64,000 nt of DNA from Podarcis pityusensis (Eukaryota), in NCBI GenBank assembly GCA_964106645.2, contig OZ067039.1. One strand, written 5' to 3'. Shown piece by piece: positions 21,066 through 59,204 of this stretch. Made by a program: the position numbers and the translations under genes. A model generated the notes under the pieces. That model saw only the letters and a program-made list of their open reading frames with translations. It did no database searches and was not told where the DNA came from. Each line of letters begins with the position of its first letter. Position 1 is the first letter of the stretch.

Positions 21066-22378
21066 CGGGTTATATCTAATGCTGTCTGTACACAAGTGGA
21101 ACAACCTTCCACTCATGCAACAGGATTTCATGTCCCTGCAGCCCTTCACATACCCTCAAAAACTGCTCCAGAGGATTGGCAGACTTTCTGGAGCAAAGAT
21201 GGAGCAAAGCTCCATGGGAGAGGAGAAGTATGGTAGCATAAACCGAAGTCCATTTGCACTCTCTGGAATCCACCCTTTGCTCTAAAGGCTGCAATCCTGA
21301 ACACACTGACTAGGGAGTGAGCCTCACTGAACAAAGTATGACGTCCTTTAAAGTAAAAACTACAGATTGCTCAGGAAGGAAGAGGAAATCTAGATGAAAG
21401 GAGACCCATTCAGATCCAAAGCGGGAACTAGGGATGAGCAAACCTCTTCAGGCTGGTTCTTTCTGTTTCTCATTTTTCCAATTGCATGTTCCCTTCTCCA
21501 CAGTTCTGCAGCAATTTGTGATTTAAACAAAAACAAAAGACCTCATGAGATTGTGTCTGCATTTTAGTGCAAACATCTCCTAACATACACATTTTTGTGT
21601 GGAATTTTGAACTTATCTCCCACCCTTGGTTGGGCCAATCCTTTCCTGATAAACAATGCAGCTACCGGTGCCCAAGTAGGACATACCCATCTTCTAAAGT
21701 CCCTTTTAAATCATCTCCAGCTGCATGTGCATATGAGCAAGCTCTCTGACAGAGTGGCAAATGCAGCTGGGGTGACTCGCCTGGCAAGCAGGACAAATGG
21801 GGACAGAGACAGCCACAAGAAAGCCCAGTGATCTCATCTAGGGAGGCAGAAAAGCAGGTGGGCAATGTCAGCCAGCATGTAGCTAACCAGCTCCTTGGCC
21901 GCTGTGGGGGAGAGAGGGAGAAAGCACAAACGGAAAATGCTGCCTGCCTTGGAAATTCCTGGGCCAATGTTAGATCCAAAGCATCCCTTGTGTGAGGTAA
22001 GTTTCAATGGAAGAGATTATTTGTAGAGTGCCTGCAGATTTACACCAGGTTGTGAGATGCCTTCTGTGTCCAGCCCTCCAGCTGGGCTAGAACGGAAAGG
22101 AGTATCCACCAATAGATTTGGAGGGCTTTGCAAAGCAGAAAATTAACTGGAATGCTTTAAGTTCATTGGCTTCTCTTGAATATTTTAATTTTAAGCAAGT
22201 TCCAAATGGTGAGTAGATTTCCTATGCTAACAGCTGCCAAGTGTTCATTATCACTGCATGATATCTCTCAAATGCTGACAGAGGGTAAATACAAGATAGA
22301 TGTTGTCAAACGCTATCAGGTGATGTCATTCATCCTCTGGCAAGAGGCTATTGTAGCCCCATCATCTATCTCATAAAG

Positions 22379-22514
22379 CAGGCATGGCCAAACTTAGCCC
22401 TCCAGCTGTTTTGGGACTAAGATTCCCATCATCCCTGACCACTGGTCCCGTTAGCTAGGGATGATGGGAGTTGTAGTCCCAAAACAGCTGGAGGGCCAAG
22501 TTTGGCCATGCCTG
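22379..22514. mobile_element. 136-bp palindromic hAT MITE, young copy A
   Basis: Near-perfect hairpin caggcatggccaaact...agtttggccatgcctg; perfect TSD tcataaag. Confidence 0.93.
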
Positions 22515-24669
22515 TCATAAAGGTAAGTTGGCAATGTACATTTATTGACTCACTAGTTAAAACACTGGAAAGTGCACCTCAGGCCCCCCCTCCCCCCTGG
22601 ATATTTAAGGTAAGAGTCTCTCTGGAGAGACTAACAATTGCAATTTTTACTTACAACATGCACATATACACTTTATGTAATAATATGCAAATGCAACAAC
22701 AAAATAATTATATTCTTCGATTGACAGGTAGGCTGCCCCAGCCACCTGTCCAAGTTGGTTCCCAGGATCATATGTTCCTACAGAGCCATATACTCACTAG
22801 GTTTTGGGAAAAGGTGCTAGACAATATAAATATGATTACGCAGAAAAACTTAAAATTTTCAGAGGTGTAACAGGAAACTGTGGCTTAAACTAACAAGAAT
22901 GGAAGCCCCAAAGCCAGCATGCAGGGAAACGGGGGAGGCATTGTGTGGGCGGGCCAAACATCAGTTCTTGGCCTAATAAACTGGAAGGAATTAAACTAAG
23001 TTTCTGATCCAGGCAGTTGGAAGGAAAGGCGAGTTATTCTTTGTACAACACATCTTCAAAGTGATCACTATAATTTGTGGAGATCCATGTGTAAGAAGTA
23101 GGGCTATTGAAAAATTAAGGAGTTTTTGATAGATAGTAATCTGCCTTTGAAATTATATATTTAAATGAAACCAGTTTGTATTTTAACAAAACATCAATAC
23201 AGGTACATTTTTTGAGGTAGTGAAATACGTATGTGATATCTAAGAATTCAGTAAAGAAAGATATCATTCATAGTTCATAAGCAAGGCAGGCTTTAATATT
23301 TTGCTTTTTTTCAGCCATGAAAAATAAATAGGGAGGATTCAACATCGTGGTAAAGCAATCATTCCATCAGGCCAAGCATTTCAGCTTGCCAGATGGAGTG
23401 ATACACCCTGCCCCATGCACTGTTACTGGGAGCTCTCCCGGCCCACCCAGAATCAATTTCTGAGGCCATGGAGGGAGGAAAGGGAGGGGAGACCCATTGA
23501 GCAAGCAGAAACCCTTGCACAGCACTTCTGCTGATGGGACTCATTAGTTGAATCCCACTTTTGTCACTAACATCAACATCAGGGGTCACCAACATGGTGT
23601 CCCATCAGTTGATGTTGTGCTACAGCTCCCATCAGCTCCAGCCAGCATGGTCAATGGTGAGGCATGAAGGGAGCTGTAGTCAACAACATCTGGAGGGAAT
23701 CAATAAATGCTGAATTTATCTAGTACAGGCAGAAACAAACTAGTTAATCATCAGGTCAACATCTAGCTGAAGATCATCTTGAATGGTACACTATTCTACC
23801 AATGAACTAGGCCCCTTTGGAATTTCCACTGAATGTGTGAGGAGCAAGAGGAAGCTCAGTCTATCTAGAGTAAAAAAGGGACTGCAAACTTCAACGGTTC
23901 TAGATTTATCCACTGCCCATAAAACAACATTATGTCAGGAATGGCTGTTACATTACAATCTGCTTCTCATGCAAAGACTATGATGAACCCCACGTGCGGC
24001 AACATTCTGTCAAAGAAGTCAGTGTTGCTTTTCAAAAAATAAGAGAACCACCTGCAGCTTGAATCCATCCAAATGATGTAGTCAGTGGGTATCCATGGGG
24101 CATGTTATTCAATGATGCAATGCCCTGTCTGTGCCAGGCTGCCTCTTTTCCAAAGACATGGGCATTACTCACAATGCATCAAGCAAAAATAATAATAAAA
24201 AGTACACAAATAAGAATTGCAATTGAAATGAGCTTGAAAACAACAACAAATCAGCCAATCAGCCAATGGATCAGTGTGTTTGATGGATAGGGTTCTGCCT
24301 TGTGTCTTCCAGTTCAGGAGGCTGTGCACATTTTCTGCTATGAAGATTGATACTTAAGCCCATGTTTCTGTATTCCATTTTTCTGCTCCTTTAAGAGAGC
24401 TGGCCATATTATTTTTCTATAGAGAAGGCTTGATGGGGGGGGTGTCGCATGGTGGGGAAAATTTGTCAAGATGTTCTTTGGCAAGAGAGAGGGTGAAGAG
24501 GGAAGGGAGCCTTAACTCTTAAGAGGTTTTCAAAATGTGCTATTTTCTTTTGCTTTGGAAGGGCATCTTTTTGTTTTTGTTTTGATTTTTTGTTTTGCAT
24601 TTTTTTTTCCAGGTTCATCATTTGTCATCTATCCATATACTTATACACATACTTCATTATACACCATCA

Positions 24670-28325: not shown

Positions 28326-28345
28326 GAAAATGTAGCTCCATTAAC

Positions 28346-28960
28346 TTTCATGGACTGGCTGGACACAGAGGAGTGGTGGGAGGAACGAGTGGGGGAAACT
28401 ACCAAGGGAAGAAGGCTCAAAGCCTGGGGAGTGGTGGGACAATGATGAGTGGTCACAGGGAGAAGAAGAAATTTGGGGAGGGGAGGTGTTGGAAGCTGAG
28501 TAGGTAACAGGGCTTAGTGAGCTGGGAGAGTCTGTGGCAGAGAGAAGTTCAGAATCAGAGGCAGAAGCTGAAGCAGGAGGATGGGAGGAGGCCAAGAGGC
28601 AGAGATGAGTCAGGCTAGTGAAGAGTCATGGGTGTCTTCCTCTCCTGCTGCAACAAGTTCCCCTTCCTCATTGTCTTGAAGAACCAGAAGAGGCATGAAA
28701 AGGTTGGAGCAGAAGTTGGCGATGTGCAGACACAGTCTCCGATTGCTTGGTGTGTGTGTGGGAACCCTGGAGAGAAGGGGACTTAGGCAGTTGTGGAAAG
28801 GTGGGGACCTTCAGACTCAACAACTGCTTCATGGGGGTAAGAGCTGCCGGAGATGAGTTGCTGTGCTCATTAAACCTGACACTCCTGTGTAGATGTTTTT
28901 GCTAATAAAGAGTTAACTCCAACTTGAACGGTGTGATTTACTGCTGGCTCACTCCTGACA
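28346..28960 (+). mobile_element. Solo LTR (probably Gypsy/Ty3-type), 615 bp
   Basis: Termini tttcatgga...tcctgaca (degenerate TGTCA...TGACA inverted ends). 5-bp TSD ttaac/tttac. AATAAA at 28904-28909. Confidence 0.8.
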
Positions 28961-31889
28961 TTTACTTACAGTGCCAAAGACTAAACCGATGGTGTCCTAC
29001 AGTATGACCCCATCATGTCCATGAATGCTCAGAAACCAAAGGGAAGGGCTCCCAGTAGTCAACAGGAAGGCAGCCATTTGTTGCCTCCAGAGCACCCAGC
29101 CCTCCCTTGAAGCTAATATTCTCTGCACTCCTGCTCATCTTGTCTCTTTCCTTCACCAACCATCCTTCCCCCCCTCAGTGCTCTCAAAAACTAATCAACA
29201 TTATTTTGAATTCTAGATTTTGAAAGCACAAATTGCTTAGAATTAGCAGGCATTTTTGCACAATTTGGAGGAACTTGCAGGCTTTGGCATTGATCGTAAT
29301 AGCTAAAATGCCTTCAAATTCTGTTGGGAAAGCACTGTAGCAAACCAAATGAAGGTGTATGGCAAGGGGAGGAGACAAACGTAAGAACTGTTCTTCTAAA
29401 CTGCAGCTCCTTTCCCACTTCCACTCTCCATTGAAATGGAACAACTCAAAAATTAAAAGATGGGCCATCCAAGAACATTCCACTGCGTGACTATATCCCG
29501 GCTATGCTAAATTATAGTCTTTGGGGTGGTTAAGCCATTTTGCGGCTGGACAATATTCCTTGAGACTTTATGGCATCTGGTTTGGCAAGCCTCTCCCAAT
29601 TTTCCACGATTCAATAACGCTGATAACAGACTCCCCCTTTCCTGGACACTTTTCTTCAATTCCAAGCAGTCTGGCCTTCTGTAACTCCTTCCATCTTGAA
29701 TTTCCCTCCCCACTGGCCCTTCCCATTTTACTTTGGCCAGTTCAAGCAAGAAATCAAAAATTGAAAATAAATGCAGATTCAGGTCACACCACCCCAAATT
29801 TCCTTACATGGCAAGATCCAGGAAAACAGCAGGTAATTACAGCACAAAATTCCCACAATTATCCAGGCTAGCAGGGTTGCAAATGGATATTTTCTGCAAC
29901 CAATTAACACAGAAATGTGTACTAAACTTCCACTAGGTTGTATTAGTTTACCAGAAGTGGTTTTTAATGATGTGTGAAATATCGCATAAAATACAAAAAT
30001 TATCAGGTAAGGAAGCATTCTGAAAATGGAATGAAGTGCTGTCTCAGTGCAGCCTTCATTGCATTTTGTCCCAAAAATAGTGTGTGAAATATTTCACTTC
30101 AGGGAATAGTTATCGGAATGGAAGATATTTGGGCCCTTCCCTCTCTAACAATTCCTCAATTAATTAAAAAACAAACAAACCTGACCAGGCCTGCCTCTGT
30201 GCTTTTAACAGGAGGTTGGTCTTAAGCATTCAATCTGTAAAACATACCTCCATGCCATGAAAAGCATAATCATTTGCTAATGGCCACAGGTCAAGCTGCT
30301 TCTTCAAGGGACAGCTTAAGGGGATAGTTGAAAATGTGGGGCAATCAGGCTTATATAACCAACATGCTTAGCTCTAATCAATGCATGAAGGGGTTAAGAC
30401 CACAGAGTAAACTGTCCTGCCATGCTTAGGTAGGTCACTTCCCTTCACCTTGGGAGGAAAAGTTATGAAGCCTTTGTCCTTTTCATTTCCACCGAGTGAA
30501 CCCTACCAGTAAGGGGGTCTAAGGTGGATGCTTCAAGCTTAGACTATGTGGTTTAAGCAATCCATCTTTGTGTTTCTATACAAACAATGTAAAAACATTT
30601 ACCATTTTGGAACCTAAGTTATACTACCTGTCTCTTTCTGTGCTAAGGAACGTGGAGAACTTTGGAAGCAACTTACAAAGAGGATATTTTAAAGGTACAA
30701 CAGCCTATATTTCCATGCTTTACTTTGCTGCATGTTTTGTAATTTTAAATCTCTGCTAGGGTTCTCTCCTCAAAGAGTACTTGCTCCAAACCTGATTCAG
30801 AGTCAGGGCTACCATTTCCCCCCATTTCATTAAATTTATACAACACTTAATTACAATTGTCTCCAAGTGGTGTGTAGGTAACTCAAAACAATGGGTCCAG
30901 ATCTTATTTACTGGGTGTTGACCAACTGGAATATGCAACTATTGCTTACAAAAATGGCTTGTCCAATCTAGAACACACGTGATCCAGAAGGGGACTCTGC
31001 ACAATTTTTTTATACTGTTCTCACATACTGTGGGGGGGGGGGGCGGGAAACACCCCTTGGCTGCTTTTTGGCCCTCAAGATGCAGTTTATTATACATCAC
31101 TTTCAGGGGCAAACAGCAACTGGTCATGAGAGAGGGGGATTTCAGTGGGTAACTGGTGCAAGTCCTCTATCCAGACTGAGAGCACGTTTCAGATCTTAGC
31201 CCCACATAGCTGCTTTCCCTTCAAAATAAAAGGTGACTGGCTTCAGCATAATTTGTTTTGTTTTTAAGGATGAAGATGGTAACGTGAAAAGGAAAGGACC
31301 TAAGTGATTAGCCTGTTGATGTTCATCTGGCTGCATCTTGCGTCCCTTGCAATAGTTCAAACAAGCCCTCCCCTTTATTAGCACTAAAATTAAACCAACA
31401 AGAGGAATATGCAAAGCCACAGCTGCTTTCCAGCATTAATCAGAAACACTCATTGAAAAATTTATGGTTTCCCAGCCTCTGTGTAAAGGAACCACTTGCC
31501 AAATATAAGCCAAGCGCAGCTGCGCTGAAAACACAAGCCATGTGTATGAGCACTTTGTGCTTCTCTCTGCCTCAAATATGCCTGGCAGCAACGCGGTGCA
31601 TACAGCTCACTTCAGGGAAGAGAGAGAAAAGGTGTTTCTGCAGTTGGCTCTTCAGATTGGCAACTCCAGCATGACTTGCTACACAGCTGACAGTCATAAG
31701 AACATGATCATAAGACGAGCTGGGCTAGATCAGGCCAACAGCCCATCGAGTCCAGCATCCTGTTCTTACAGTTGCTAACCAGATGCCCGTGAGAAGCTTG
31801 TGAAGCTGGACATGGGTACAACAAGTCCATTTGCTGGCTGGCTGACAAGGTTGCAGGGCCAGGCATTGGTGCTGCAAACTTAGGGTATA

Positions 31890-32093
31890 CAGTGGTACCT
31901 CGGGTTAAGAACTTAATTCGTTCCAGAGGTCCGTTCTTAACCTGAAACTTTAGGTAATGGGGCCTCCCTCTGCCACCGCGCCACCGGAGCAAGATTTCTG
32001 TTCTCATCCTGAAGCAAAGTTCTTAACCCGAGGTAATATTCCTGGGTTAGCAGAGTCTGTAACCTGAAGCGTATGTAACCTGAGGTACCACTG
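31890..32093 (+). mobile_element. Tc1/mariner MITE, copy 2 (internally deleted)
   Basis: Same TIRs and TA TSD; homologous to 2538-2779. Confidence 0.93.
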
Positions 32094-33113
32094 TACTATA
32101 ATCTTTCTGCTCTTGATTTTAGCAAAGAATGATTGTAGCCCTGAATGACCACAATCCTGCAGGCTCCCCTAGATTAATGTCAAGAGCTCAGAAGGGTCTC
32201 TCCTCCCCTCTCTGAGTCTCCAAAATGGAAGAACTTGGGTTCTATCTCTGTTCCTACTTCATGACTGGCTTTCTACCACCATGTCACAGTATCTAGTAAT
32301 TAAGACTGGGGGATTTTGGTGTGTAAATTTGGGTCTCTGCAGCAAAGAATGGGATTTTCCATGGAAAATATGTTTGCTGTTCCAGATTTGCTGATATTTG
32401 GGTGGCAGGATGAAAAGGAGAAGGCACAGTCTATGCAGTACAGATACAACTATGCTGCACTTGTACAAAGGGTTCTGGCAGGTTGCATAGGCCATATACC
32501 GCTAGAGTCCTCTGAATGGGGTAGATCACCCCTTTGCCACTGCCTTCTAGTGGAATGTGGGTGAAACTACAAAGGATAGAAGGAAGAAATCAGCAAGCAT
32601 GTTAGTAGTAGATTTTCACATATTACTACATGAATAATCTGAAAAGCTGTCTCTAGCTGGTAAAAAAAAAATCTACCTTGTTTTAGGGGCATACTTGGAA
32701 CAATGCATTTTCTTCACTGAGATACTAGTGGGGGTTAGGCTCATCTTAATTATTCTCCTCCACCCTCCCTCATGCATCATACAAAACCTCCAGTTACAGG
32801 CTTTCAAGAGCTCTTGAAGAGAAGCAGATAATATTTTAAAGATTTCAAAGTAGCATACAAAGGCACAAATGAAACTAATTCACAATACCTATAAATACAA
32901 CTTATAACCAACAAATAAACGTAACAAAATACTACATGACCAGAGTCTGGGGATAAAATGTATTGAGATGAAACATGTCCTGTTGTGTTTTTCAAACAAA
33001 AACTGGTTCAGGGAAGCAGACTCCTTCTGACATCATAGCCTTGGTTTGGTTTTGAGACATTTGACTACCCTGAGTTGTATTGGAATATAGCTTAGGGTGG
33101 AGAAACACTCCCC

Positions 33114-38078: not shown

Positions 38079-39035
38079 CATTGAGAATAATGGAAAACAA
38101 AGAGGGATCTTCCTGCAACCCTCTCTTCAATCTATAAAATCAATGGAACATCCTAGCACTCACATATCATGCTAGTTAGTTTTATTCACTGGAATATGGA
38201 GTAGAAGGAGTGGTGGAAACAGAACTATGTTTTTCTGTAGATATTAACATCAACAAGCAGCTTGGATGCTCTTAAACTAATTGCTTTCTATACATGGAGC
38301 AGAAAAAAGAATGGACTCTATTAGGGATGAGAAAAAAGAAAAGAAAAGAGTAAAGCTGGGGTTTCCAATTGTCTCAAATGATCAGGCTCCAGAAGCCAGA
38401 TGGAAACATCTACAGAGTCTGGAAGGCAGTTAGGGGATCCCTTCTGTCTTGTGGAGAGACTGGCTCTGCAATGCTCTATCCCAAACTAGGGTGGAATCTA
38501 CACACAAATAAAAAATGCTGTGAAAATGCTTTTTTAAAAAACGTTTTGAAAAATACATTGACTTTTGCATAGCTCACTGTCTCCATCTAGTGTCACATTT
38601 GTATATTAAACTTTACAGCACATTTAAAACATTTTATTTGCAGCTGTATAGCTGAGTCCCAGGACTGCCTATTACAACCTATTTGCCAGGTACCTTAAGC
38701 TTAACCTCATCTCCCCCACAGGACCCAAAGAGGTAGAGAAGGATCAAGAGTTCACTTAAAGGCAGTATAGCCATTATACAACCATTTTTCTCACTTGTGG
38801 AAATAACACATGGCCCTAGGCAGATTGTCACTGTTATCAGCCCAAACTACTTGCATGCCACCACGGCAGCTTTGCATATCATTCAGGAGCAGAATGCTAG
38901 ATGAAAACCCATGTATCTCATGGAAACGCTCACTTGGAAACAGGTTAAACCCCAAATTGTGAAGCATGCCTTGGCTCAAAGGATACACTTCAGGTCTGCT
39001 ACCCAACCCTTAAATACTTGCTGTCATCACCAATA

Positions 39036-39278
39036 CAGTGGTACCTCAGGTTACATACGCTTCAGGTTACATACGCTTCAGGTTACAGACTCCGCTAACC
39101 CAGAAATAGTGCTTCAGGTTAAGAACTTTGCTTCAGGATGAGAACAGAAATCGTGCTCCGGCGGCAGCAGCAGCAGCAGGAGGCCCCATTAGCTAAAGTG
39201 GTGCTTCAGGTTAAGAACAGTTTCAGGTTAAGAACGGACCTCCGTAACGAATTAAGTACTTGACCCGAGGTACCACTG
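39036..39278 (-). mobile_element. Tc1/mariner MITE, copy 3 (inverted)
   Basis: Reverse complement of the family. TA on the left; the right flank is AG rather than TA. Confidence 0.93.
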
Positions 39279-39284
39279 AGTGTA

Positions 39285-39509
39285 CAGTGGTACCTCGGTT
39301 TAAGAACTTAATTCGTTACGGAGGTCCGTTCTTAACCTGAAGCACCACTTTAGCTAATGGGGCCTCCCGCTGCCACCATGCCGCCAGAGCACGATTTCTG
39401 TTCTCATCCTGAAGCAAAGTTCTTAACCCGAGGTGCTATTTCTGGATTAGTGGAGTCTGTAACCTGAAGCGTCTGTAACCTGAAGCATATTTAACCTGAG
39501 GTACCACTG
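39285..39509 (+). mobile_element. Tc1/mariner MITE, copy 4, head-to-head with copy 3
   Basis: TIRs and TA TSD on both sides; 6-bp spacer from copy 3. Confidence 0.93.
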
Positions 39510-39559
39510 TAATATCTTGCTTTTCTGATCTGATGCTACACTTCATCCTAAAAACATGA

Positions 39560-47454: not shown

Positions 47455-47821
47455 TAAGTTTGTACATTGTTGCCTATAGTAACCACATTTGTGGTTAATT
47501 ATCAAAGAGGCCTACAATATTTTTTTGAAGTGCTACAAAAACTTGCCACGTTTGAACAGAACAACAGGCCCTCCTGTTTCAGTTCTCTGAAAAAAAATTA
47601 TATACAACTTAAGCAGAAGACTATAGAAATTCTGGTATTCAGGCATGGATCCAAGAGACCCCACACACTCAGTGTTGACATACTAGCTAAGGTCCTCCAA
47701 AACGACACTTTCCATTGTCCTCAAACTTTTATCAGTCATGGTTTAAATAATCTTTTTTATCATTCCCCCCTCTCAGATATCATGTGTATATCTGCTAGTT
47801 AAACTATTTGGCAGCTTAGAG

Positions 47822-47957
47822 CAGGCATCCCCAAACTTTGCTCTCCAGATGTTTTGGGACTACAATTCCCATCATCCCTGACCACTGGTCCTGTTAGCTA
47901 GGGATGATGGGGGCTGTAGTCCCAAAACATCTGGAAGGCCAAATTTGGGGATGCCTG
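47822..47957. mobile_element. 136-bp palindromic hAT MITE, copy B
   Basis: caggcatccccaaact...aatttggggatgcctg; TSD gcttagag/acctagag. Confidence 0.9.
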
Positions 47958-48852
47958 ACCTAGAGTGTGAGTATTTGGGGAGTATTCTACCACATCTATT
48001 TCTTATTAAATTTACTAGAACAGAGTCACATTAATTTGCCTTAAGCTGATTTTAAGGTCATCTAAACTGGTGGCCATCACCATGTGTTCTGGGAGCGAAT
48101 TCCATAGTTTATCTAGGTGCTGTGTGAATAAGTACTTTCTTTTGTCTGTGTCCTCAATCTCCCACCATTCTGTTTAATTTGACAACTTCTCAATATTATA
48201 AAAGTGGGGAGAGGAACTGTTACAGAGAGATCTCTTTGCAGTAAGGGGTAGAAGCAATGATATGAACAGTAAAGATAATCAAGATGCATTTGCAAGAGCT
48301 GAGATGCTGAGTCAGACTTAGAAACTGAAATGGTCCTGTTCAGCATTAAAGCATGCAACAGGTCAGCTTCAAGTAATGACATGCTGCCAACCATGCCTAC
48401 ATGTTCACCCATGGAGTGGGAGCGGGATCTTTACCAGGAAATTAATCATTGAATGACTGAATAGGAAAGACCACCCACATGAAGACATTCCAAGTAGCAG
48501 CATTTCCCAATGATAAAAGTCCCTGGCAGCTTTAAGTAGCTTAAAAGTTGGCAGCCTTAAATAGCTGGGATACAGTCAGTGTTACACAGCTGGATTACCT
48601 CAGTCATCGTAGCATCTTTCTCATCTATGCATGGTGTGCTATACTTAAATTATGCATGTTTATTATGAACAGCTGCCTGTTCATAATAAGGAAGATGCAG
48701 GAGGTTACCATGGTGGTTTCTGTGTAAGGCGGGGGGGGGGTTGCACAAAAGAAGGGGAGGTGGTGGCATGGACATAAGGGTGAAGGTGAAAACAGGTGGA
48801 AAGCAGGGCTGTGAAACAGAATAGAGAAGTGGTTTCAAAAATAGGGATGGGA

Positions 48853-57397: not shown

Positions 57398-57788
57398 TTG
57401 GCGCAATACTTGCAAAGCCCTCCATTTGGAAGTACTGTTGTTTAAATAACCAAATAATGCACTGAGCAGATTTTCAAGTTGTCACAAAATGTGCATGGGC
57501 TATGAGCAATTTTGAGGAGGAATTTTGGGTTCCACCAACTACACTGATATCCTAAAGGATTAGATGAATGAAGTTATGCAAGAATTTTACAGTACTATGT
57601 CTAGCAGAAAAAGCAAACGTCACAAGCAGAGCTTCTGAATAGGTAGTAGAGCTGTTGAGAACCATAGTGGAAGTGGATACATGCTAAACGAGACGAAGGA
57701 AGGAGCTTACCCAAAATCCTTCATGAGTCAGAATCAGAAGGAAACTTGCCAGCCTTTTATACCATGCTTGGTTTCATTATACCCAATA

Positions 57789-58029
57789 CAGTGGTACCTC
57801 TAGTTACGAACTTAATTCATTCCGGAGGTCCGTTCTTAACCTGAAACTGTTCTTAACTAGAGGAGTGCTTTCGCTAATGGTGCCTCTTGCTGCCGCTGAG
57901 CCGCCGGCACACGATTTCTGTTCTCATCCTGGGGCAAAGTTCTCAACTCGAGGTAACTTTTTCAGGTTAGTGGAGTTTGTTACCTGAAGCGTTTGTGACC
58001 TGAGGCGTTTGTAACTCAAGGTACCACTG
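57789..58029 (+). mobile_element. Tc1/mariner MITE, copy 5 (diverged variant)
   Basis: TIR cagtggtacctc...aggtaccactg with TA TSD. Confidence 0.92.
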
Positions 58030-59204
58030 TATTTACTGATGCAAAAATTCAGGAAAACAGTGGCCCAATTACAAAACTTGTCATATTTTAAAACGTGGTG
58101 ATTTTGGAAGACTTTTGTAAGTATCAAAATACCTGGAAAAGCCTCCTTCACCCACATTATGAAGGTTATGAATCATAATCCTCAATAGACCAGGTTCTTA
58201 GGACACTTGTTCTGGTGGCCATCTGTGGTATGTTATTCCTGTACCCTACTCAACAATGATGTGCTCTATGCTTTGAAAACACTGGCAAGGAATTTACCCA
58301 TGTCCTTTTAAATACATCCCAGGCCATTTGGCCATGCTGTACACTTCCAAGACCTCTACATAAATCAGACCCAGTTCCCAGTTCCTTGCTTGGCAAAAAT
58401 CAGATGTGGATTAATGTATCCGGTAGAGTGGAAGTCCTCCTCCATAAAAATCCTGCTACAATTTAGCTGCTGACAACCAAAAAGCATAGTTACGCCTGTC
58501 CACTGTAATGCGACCCAGCCTTCAGAGAATCAGAGCTGTGGTTACCACTCCAGGGATTAATGAATAAATACAGCTGATCAGTTTCACAGTAACAGTAATT
58601 ATTCTTCCTGCAATAACAGGTCTCTATTATTGGTATATGCCAAACCAATCTTTATTTGCCAGTCTAATAGATAACCCGGCTTTCAGGTCACATATTACTT
58701 TATTATTAGGACTCTCCCAGTTTTTCAGAACTTGCAACATAATTAAACTGGAATACCGTGAGCTCAGACTGTGCAGACATTCAGGAGAATTCCAGTGACT
58801 CAGTATCTTTGCAAGAACGCATTCCAAATTCTGTTAATAGAGGATTGTTCACTGCATGGTTCAAAGGCTTGACTGCTCTGAGTTGGTCCCATGTCAGGAA
58901 ATACATACTGGATCTGATTTATGTACAGGTTTTAGAAGTGGACAGATGGTGCTAGTGTTTTGCAAGCTAGTGGCTACACAGTTTATTTCTGCTTATTCTG
59001 AAGAATTTATAAACTGCCCAAACAATCCCTAAGTGGTATACACACAGTCATTTTAAACAATTATTAACATATTAATAAAACCAGCAAAATTTAAGAGCAG
59101 GTATACACAACTTGTTTTCATGTCCAGATAATGAATGGCTCTATCAATTCTCAGGTATTGGTTTGCTGACAATCTATAGGACATGTCCAAGATGTACTAA
59201 TGAG

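Follow-up and report, generated by a model that had tools for sequence, protein, structure and literature searches.

The window, a stretch of 64,000 nucleotides of genomic DNA from Podarcis pityusensis, contains at positions 28346-28960 the solo LTR of a lizard Ty3/Gypsy family that is old and present in many copies, here named family A. The LTR, its borders and the parts of the reading frame inside it are the following:

28341-28345, no strand assigned: left target-site duplication, TTAAC; 5-bp duplications are also present at other copies.
28346-28960, plus strand: solo LTR of family A, Sushi-type chromovirus-like, judged from its copies and its att-type ends.
28347-28786, plus strand: decayed reading frame in the phase of LTR base 2, of about 139 codons in most copies.
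28350-28352, plus strand: ATG at LTR base 5; 31 of 49 family-A copies have it, and 0 of 6 sister-family copies.
28350-28500, plus strand: acidic, Trp-rich head, with two copy-specific changes, one base gained near 28396 and three lost near 28431.
28501-28503, plus strand: in-frame stop TAG, copy-specific.
28580-28590, plus strand: second frameshift, copy-specific.
28620-28676, plus strand: Ser/Pro-rich segment.
28677-28697, plus strand: segment equivalent to SPRTRR, with a copy-specific stop TGA (28677-28679).
28725-28745, plus strand: basic motif, reading CRHSLRL in the window copy.
28784-28786, plus strand: in most copies, the TAG closing the frame; out of phase in the window copy.
28904-28909, plus strand: AATAAA polyadenylation-type signal, 51 nt from the LTR end.
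28961-28965, no strand assigned: right target-site duplication, TTTAC, read from the sequence.

TG..CA ends, a short target duplication and dispersed copies identify the members of family A as solo LTRs. The 5' end of the window LTR is decayed, reading TTTCA where other copies read TGTCA, while its 3' end is CCTGACA. Of the 49 near-full family-A copies, 24 are bordered by a 5-bp target duplication (one mismatch at most), and the copies are dispersed over all large contigs, with unrelated flanks. Searching the genome (1.5 Gb, 336 contigs) at the DNA level gave 4941 candidates, of which 40 were scored, with identities of 77-83%, and searching it at the protein level with the family-A frame gave 11280 candidates, of which 150 were scored; the mean difference among 28 DNA-picked copies is 19.8%. 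The family-A ends fit the Sushi att motifs TGTYANR and CNTNACA (Table 3 of PMC3601003), and the AATAAA is close to the 3' end; the ends of rGmr1 are similar, so the fit does not single out Sushi elements.

Pieces 95-99% identical to window positions 28601-29100 are present in three other organisms, one of them spanning the 3' junction, and the insertion of the window LTR is likely common to several species. At the TGA stop no difference is listed for these pieces, which does not prove that the stop is shared. Four presumed-RNA runs contain many diverged family-A pieces, none of which is specific to the window copy. Among the 25 frames searched out of the window's 48 of at least 100 amino acids, none has a Pfam match. 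Several MITE-like DNA transposon copies with short inverted repeats are located elsewhere in the window, at 2534-2785, 31886-32115, 39032-39515, 57785-58035, 22374-22522 and 47817-47965, and include a head-to-head pair at 39 kb.

The window copy of the reading frame is dead, being interrupted by two frameshifts and two stops. The original prediction had read peptide pieces, the two stops (TAG at 28501-28503 and TGA at 28677-28679) and the motif codons (28725-28745) from this copy, all of which are correctly placed. Its frameshifts, positioned by hand, are also right: only 3% of the remaining copies share the additional base in the G/A run near 28396, and around 28580-28590 the window copy has a spacing of 38 nt, as against 36 or 42 nt in most copies. 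A TG expansion at 28751-28755 forms a further copy-specific break. The extent of about 135 codons described a real frame, although in most copies this continues a few codons further, ending at the TAG after about 139 codons; the spacing that keeps this terminal TAG in frame is found in 27 of 32 copies. A frame length of 163 codons, taken from copy L013, was rejected, as the length of L013 is copy-specific. The layout expected for the frame, acidic and Trp-bearing, then Ser/Pro-rich and finally basic, is present, with a net charge of -30 followed by +8 in the basic part.

The continuity across copies on which the prediction depended was found: in 35 DNA-picked copies, five of the six frames each have 3-7 codon columns in which the majority of copies have a stop, and the sixth, the frame entered at LTR base 2, has none. 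Its highest stop column, at a CpG site, reaches 31% of the copies, and it contains 2.1 stops per copy, compared with 4.0-8.5 in the other five frames. When the first 415 nt were shuffled preserving dinucleotides, the given plus-strand frame was stop-free in 11 of 4000 shuffles and any plus-strand frame in 23 of 4000, a chance test that is slightly overstated because the shuffles do not keep triplet periodicity. For each of eight intervals, the spacing between anchors keeps phase in 26-33 of 34-35 copies; the common variants are 27, 30, 33, 36 and 39 nt in one case and 36 and 42 nt in another. The indel phase agrees with a coding frame over the first 360 nt, where 5 of 7 shared indels are in frame, but not between nt 360 and 492 (1 of 7) or in the last 100 nt (0 of 4), and slippage of GAG/GAA in G/A-rich triplets would account for part of the in-frame indels. 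The data support a frame that was protein-coding in active elements.

A sister family preserves the sequence upstream of such an LTR. In the decayed element L146, the integrase core is followed by SH3, the chromodomain, a purine tract and an LTR homologous to that of family A; it was reached through a purine-tract pattern that led to the locus L127, the chromodomain of which led to L146. Over its first 65-76 nt, the L146 LTR shares 80% identity with family-A copies (E 1e-13); with the window copy it shares 66% over 208 nt. The residues closing the L146 chromodomain are in the same frame as the LTR entry; a one-base break is located 67 nt before the LTR, and the 5' half of the element is missing. 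A solo sister-family copy aligns with a stop-free family-A copy in one frame over residues 1-136 (36%, E 4e-17), an alignment that begins in the Trp-rich head and reaches the basic tip, and the sister LTRs start with TGTCAGG or TGTCAAG. In three more distant relatives (L150, L186 and L194) a single frame runs from the chromodomain into the LTR, with a similar start, EEEWW or DW. In a tree of SH3-chromodomain sequences, L146 and L180 fall into one subclade (support 100/100, inner order open); this tree comprises local copies and no reference elements, its row L111 is a second chromodomain at that locus and not the LTR-joined one, and L212 was left out as too short.

The locus L127 (1514-2120, on contig C19) is itself a decayed chromovirus 3' end, of which the LTR also starts TGTCATGGACTGG and has an acidic, Trp-bearing frame. 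This 3' end is interrupted by what appears to be a retroviral LTR with a primer site of putative tRNA type. Decayed and intact chromovirus remnants are numerous on contig C19, as are repeated sister-type LTR copies; the contig may be a poorly recombining chromosome.

For family A itself, five PPT-junction patterns (0, 16, 2, 8 and 0 matches) gave no family-A junction; no 3' LTR with internal sequence and no full-length element was present among the LTRs read (about 94 starts and 53 ends), 100 of 103 LTR ends listed and 45 longer regions; the chromodomain searches were dominated by young families. One guessed self-priming pattern gave no match, and the sequence upstream of copy L043 is unique DNA. 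A same-strand pair of family-A copies 6 kb apart, considered as the two ends of an element, was rejected as a segmental duplication. Naturally open family-A copies do not match longer database proteins, and their matches to short proteins (4 and 11) are all pieces of the same LTR family; the database proteins containing family-A pieces carry Podarcis names. The search for full-length elements that the original prediction called for thus yielded the sister junction of L146 and intact relatives, but none for family A. Comparison with these nevertheless makes it very probable that family A had the chromodomain-PPT-LTR junction as well.

L031, an intact element of an unrelated family, is located next to one family-A copy. 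Its Gag is followed by a Pol of 1374 amino acids, which contains protease, RT, RNase H, integrase, SH3 and chromodomain, and of which the last 100 codons are inside the 3' LTR. Two other intact elements, L046 and L180, have Pol frames of 1558 and 1623 amino acids, with 211 and 117 codons inside the 3' LTR, respectively. In all three, the LTR is entered at LTR base 2 and the LTR pairs are 99.7-100% identical. The stop-free 3' ends of L111 and L119 extend 109 and 113 codons into the LTR, and the five chromovirus 3' ends that were examined and are stop-free all share the same entry phase. Each tail begins acidic or neutral and turns basic over the final third (net +6 to +10). LTR-encoded tails are already present, unannotated, in UniRef, where four of the six Podarcis muralis Pol proteins returned bear one.

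Very recent bursts are seen in at least three chromovirus families, those of L031, L046 and L180 among them. The L031 family has at least 150 identical copies (150 of the 150 matches listed), mostly with full-length Pol frames; for the L046 family, 149 of the 150 matches listed are identical, most of them in full-length Pol frames. Copies of the L046 family cluster at contig ends (C2:1-1750000, C1:138.7-139.7 Mb and L128-L141); on contig C2, 51 of the 87 matches listed are in the first 1.75 Mb, compared with 4 for the L031 family. Of 14 L046-family copies that were fetched, five have their own 5-bp duplications and others are tandem or nested; several lie in a shared AT-rich repeat. The clustering may reflect either targeting or local amplification.

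In L031, L046 and L180, the sequence that follows the 5' LTR is the complement, over 10-11 nt, of a site in the LTR. We take this self-priming complement to mark the 5' end of the RNA. In all three intact elements it is located about 30 nt behind a TATA-like run, near or after the stop of the tail; with the likely transcription starts at these positions, the tails are left in U3. Self-priming is described for Tf1/Sushi elements in PMC6317226.

Together, the sister junction and the three intact read-through families make it likely that the family-A frame is a C-terminal Pol/integrase tail, in the manner of plant CRM elements. The Pol of such a Sushi-type chromovirus would read past the chromodomain and PPT into the U3 of the 3' LTR. 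Transcription would start at or behind the stop of the tail, which would therefore fall in U3, be present only at the 3' end of the full-length RNA and be translated as the end of Gag-Pol; the promoter of a solo LTR would not transcribe it. The tail would stay on the mature integrase, where its basic tip, beside the chromodomain, is predicted to contact the nucleosome acidic patch as a second anchor.

Family A (28 copies) and the sister family (6 copies) differ in 29 of 93, 18 of 86 and 41 of 90 columns at codon positions 1, 2 and 3, respectively, an excess with a chi-square p of 0.002 and a permutation p of 5e-5. In the head, 12 of 30 third positions differ, compared with 3 of 32 second positions, and in the basic tail 18 of 26 compared with 4 of 22, while the middle part has no codon-position signal (14/37, 11/32 and 11/34). 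The basic tails of L111 and L119 differ by 14 silent changes and one replacement, and among those of L111, L119 and L031, pS is 0.90 and pN 0.21. These comparisons show protein-type selection between families. Within family A, there is no codon-position signal: the shared variants comprise 18 silent and 32 replacement changes, versus 16 and 34 or 14 and 36 in other frames, and the pairwise dN/dS is 0.56, versus 0.74-0.80, with 0.59-0.78 in a non-coding control. Such flatness is predicted by the neutral decay of inserted copies. Of the selection expected by the original prediction, the third-position excess between families was thus observed, while dN/dS within the family proved uninformative.

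It is possible, though less likely, that the read-through is real and the tail a tolerated, mostly functionless disordered extension, with selection only excluding stops and the basic end being promoter DNA or a plain nuclear-import signal. The tails vary wildly between families in length (100-211 amino acids) and sequence, the family-A frame has no match in Pfam or the Atlas, and its middle part is the one without codon-position signal, all of which agrees with such an extension. The RRSARL codons, moreover, contain no silent change among the L180-group copies, so that DNA constraint near the promoter is possible there. However, the silent changes that far outnumber replacements in the basic tails of L111, L119 and L031, and the third-position dominance in the head and basic tail between family A and its sister, would not result from constraint on the DNA.

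The original prediction was of a small stand-alone accessory protein. For family A, this would mean that a Pol tail had been made into a separate protein starting at the ATG at LTR base 5, in the manner of nef or sag, from a spliced or read-through RNA. Most family-A copies without the ATG are one change away from it, the family is known only as solo LTRs, and in two Podarcis gene models (P0002 and P0003) a SCAN zinc-finger exon is read in frame into such an LTR. But the ATG is absent from the sister copies, the sister LTR is joined to the chromodomain in the same phase, and L180 has an ATG at this LTR position too, where it encodes a Met in the interior of the 1623-residue Gag-Pol. The sequence TGTCA-Y-G is, besides, largely dictated by the att site, and the likely transcription starts are at or behind the stop in all three intact elements. 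We consider the stand-alone protein improbable and the ATG likely to encode an internal Met of the Pol tail. Family-A LTRs are located just behind a SCAN zinc-finger exon at two paralogous loci (L046:8300-8900 and L122, flanks 75% alike); the run of P0002 and P0003 from the exon into the acidic segment of the LTR is possibly exonisation or annotation read-through.

That purine bias and triplet slippage alone made a protein-like frame in a non-coding LTR is very improbable, as the junction in L146 and the test by codon position already speak strongly against it: the U3 is indeed G/A-rich (GC skew 0.32 in the kb concerned) and substitutions within the family are flat across codon positions, but flat decay is expected after insertion, only the LTR-base-2 frame is without shared stops, third positions are in excess between families, and the phase is that of Pol read-through in the five stop-free chromovirus 3' ends.

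At the basic motif, the 49 family-A copies have the serine in 42, the first leucine in 43, the arginine in 27 and the second leucine in 45. The variable codons vary as CpG sites do, in agreement with the idea that CpG reversion would restore RRRSLRL, although none of the 49 copies reads RRRSLRL. The HMGN-like motif proposed from the window is less conserved than SPRTRR, which is exact in 24 of the 49 copies, and the sister family reads [K/R]SL[R/Q] at this place. The likeness stands at the matching place in the intact element L180, a member of the same chromodomain subclade as L146: L180-group tails end in RRSARLKA, with RRSARL in 15 of 17 distinct frames. RRSxRL is absent from L031, L119 and L046; L031 and L119 contain RRESRRR instead. 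HMGN and Dsup grip the nucleosome acidic patch via arginine anchors of the RRSARLSA type, as described in PMC12487698. The RRSARLKA end of L180, the subclade it shares with L146 and these anchors lead to the proposal that the basic motif may bind nucleosomes, as a second chromatin anchor on the integrase; for this motif considered by itself, the proposal is tentative, at somewhat less than even odds, with nuclear import or DNA/RNA binding as alternatives.

Taken as a whole, the explanation we favour, with good confidence, is that the window contains a dead solo LTR, the frame of which is likely the C-terminal tail of a Gag-Pol/integrase, with a basic tip that would likely act as a second chromatin anchor. 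A wider reading, which we regard as rather doubtful, is that U3 tails evolve fast, that their tip converged on the HMGN motif and that, unlike one another in co-existing families, they steer the insertion of each family, as an animal parallel to the CR motif, with thousands of solo LTRs bringing acidic coding modules into host genes. It cites the L046 family, found at contig ends in satellite-like DNA where the L031 family is not.

A Pol that continues into the 3' LTR is a known feature of plant centromeric chromoviruses; this design now extends across several lizard families, with the chromodomain kept and, in very young elements, an RRSARL tip. This suggests a mechanism by which vertebrate Ty3/Gypsy integrases may reach chromatin, and Pol tails would account for the protein-like look of thousands of 'non-coding' solo LTRs. 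The window copy matters only as a fossil of the tail design, the weight being carried by the intact relatives. In the open literature searched, no LTR-encoded tail of 100-211 amino acids with an HMGN-like tip was found described, nor RRSARL in a retrotransposon integrase or such tails in reptiles.

In plant CRM elements of group A, the LTR of which encodes the CR targeting motif, and also in some beet chromoviruses, Pol extends into the 3' LTR, according to PMC3059260 and PMC3605345. The likeness of CRM group A and of Beta Beetle7 and Bingo1 to the lizard elements is the extension of the Pol ORF into the 3' LTR, seen in L031, L046, L180 and the sister element L146, and probable for family A. 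In CRM group A, however, the CR motif replaces the chromodomain, whereas the lizard elements keep a chromodomain upstream of the PPT, followed by the acidic, Ser/Pro-rich and basic tail. CRM elements are a plant clade and centromeric, while family A is from a lizard and dispersed; the likeness is in design, and none in sequence is claimed. The lizard elements work like CRM elements but are not CRM elements.

With the Tf1/Sushi elements (V-clade) of vertebrates, they share a Gag with Retrotrans_gag and DUF4939, the order PR-RT-RH-IN-SH3-chromodomain, the 5-bp target duplication, TGTYANR..CNTNACA ends, the AATAAA near the 3' end and, in the intact relatives, the self-priming complement. The mark of this class, an integrase with a C-terminal chromodomain upstream of the 3' LTR, is present in L146, and family A would be placed via its sister. 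Compared with the RRSARLSA of HMGN and Dsup, the L180 group has RRSARLKA and family A has S-L-R-L after arginine-type codons, with L at the position of A, and the sister family departs further; only 6-7 residues are alike, which implies no homology. The CBS of foamy virus Gag and MLV p12 are likewise short basic motifs, reported to tether the integration complex to nucleosomes, but those tethers are Gag products. HIV nef and MMTV sag have coding sequence in U3, as separate ORFs on their own spliced RNAs, while the lizard frame is continuous with Pol in the relatives and has no conserved start of its own.
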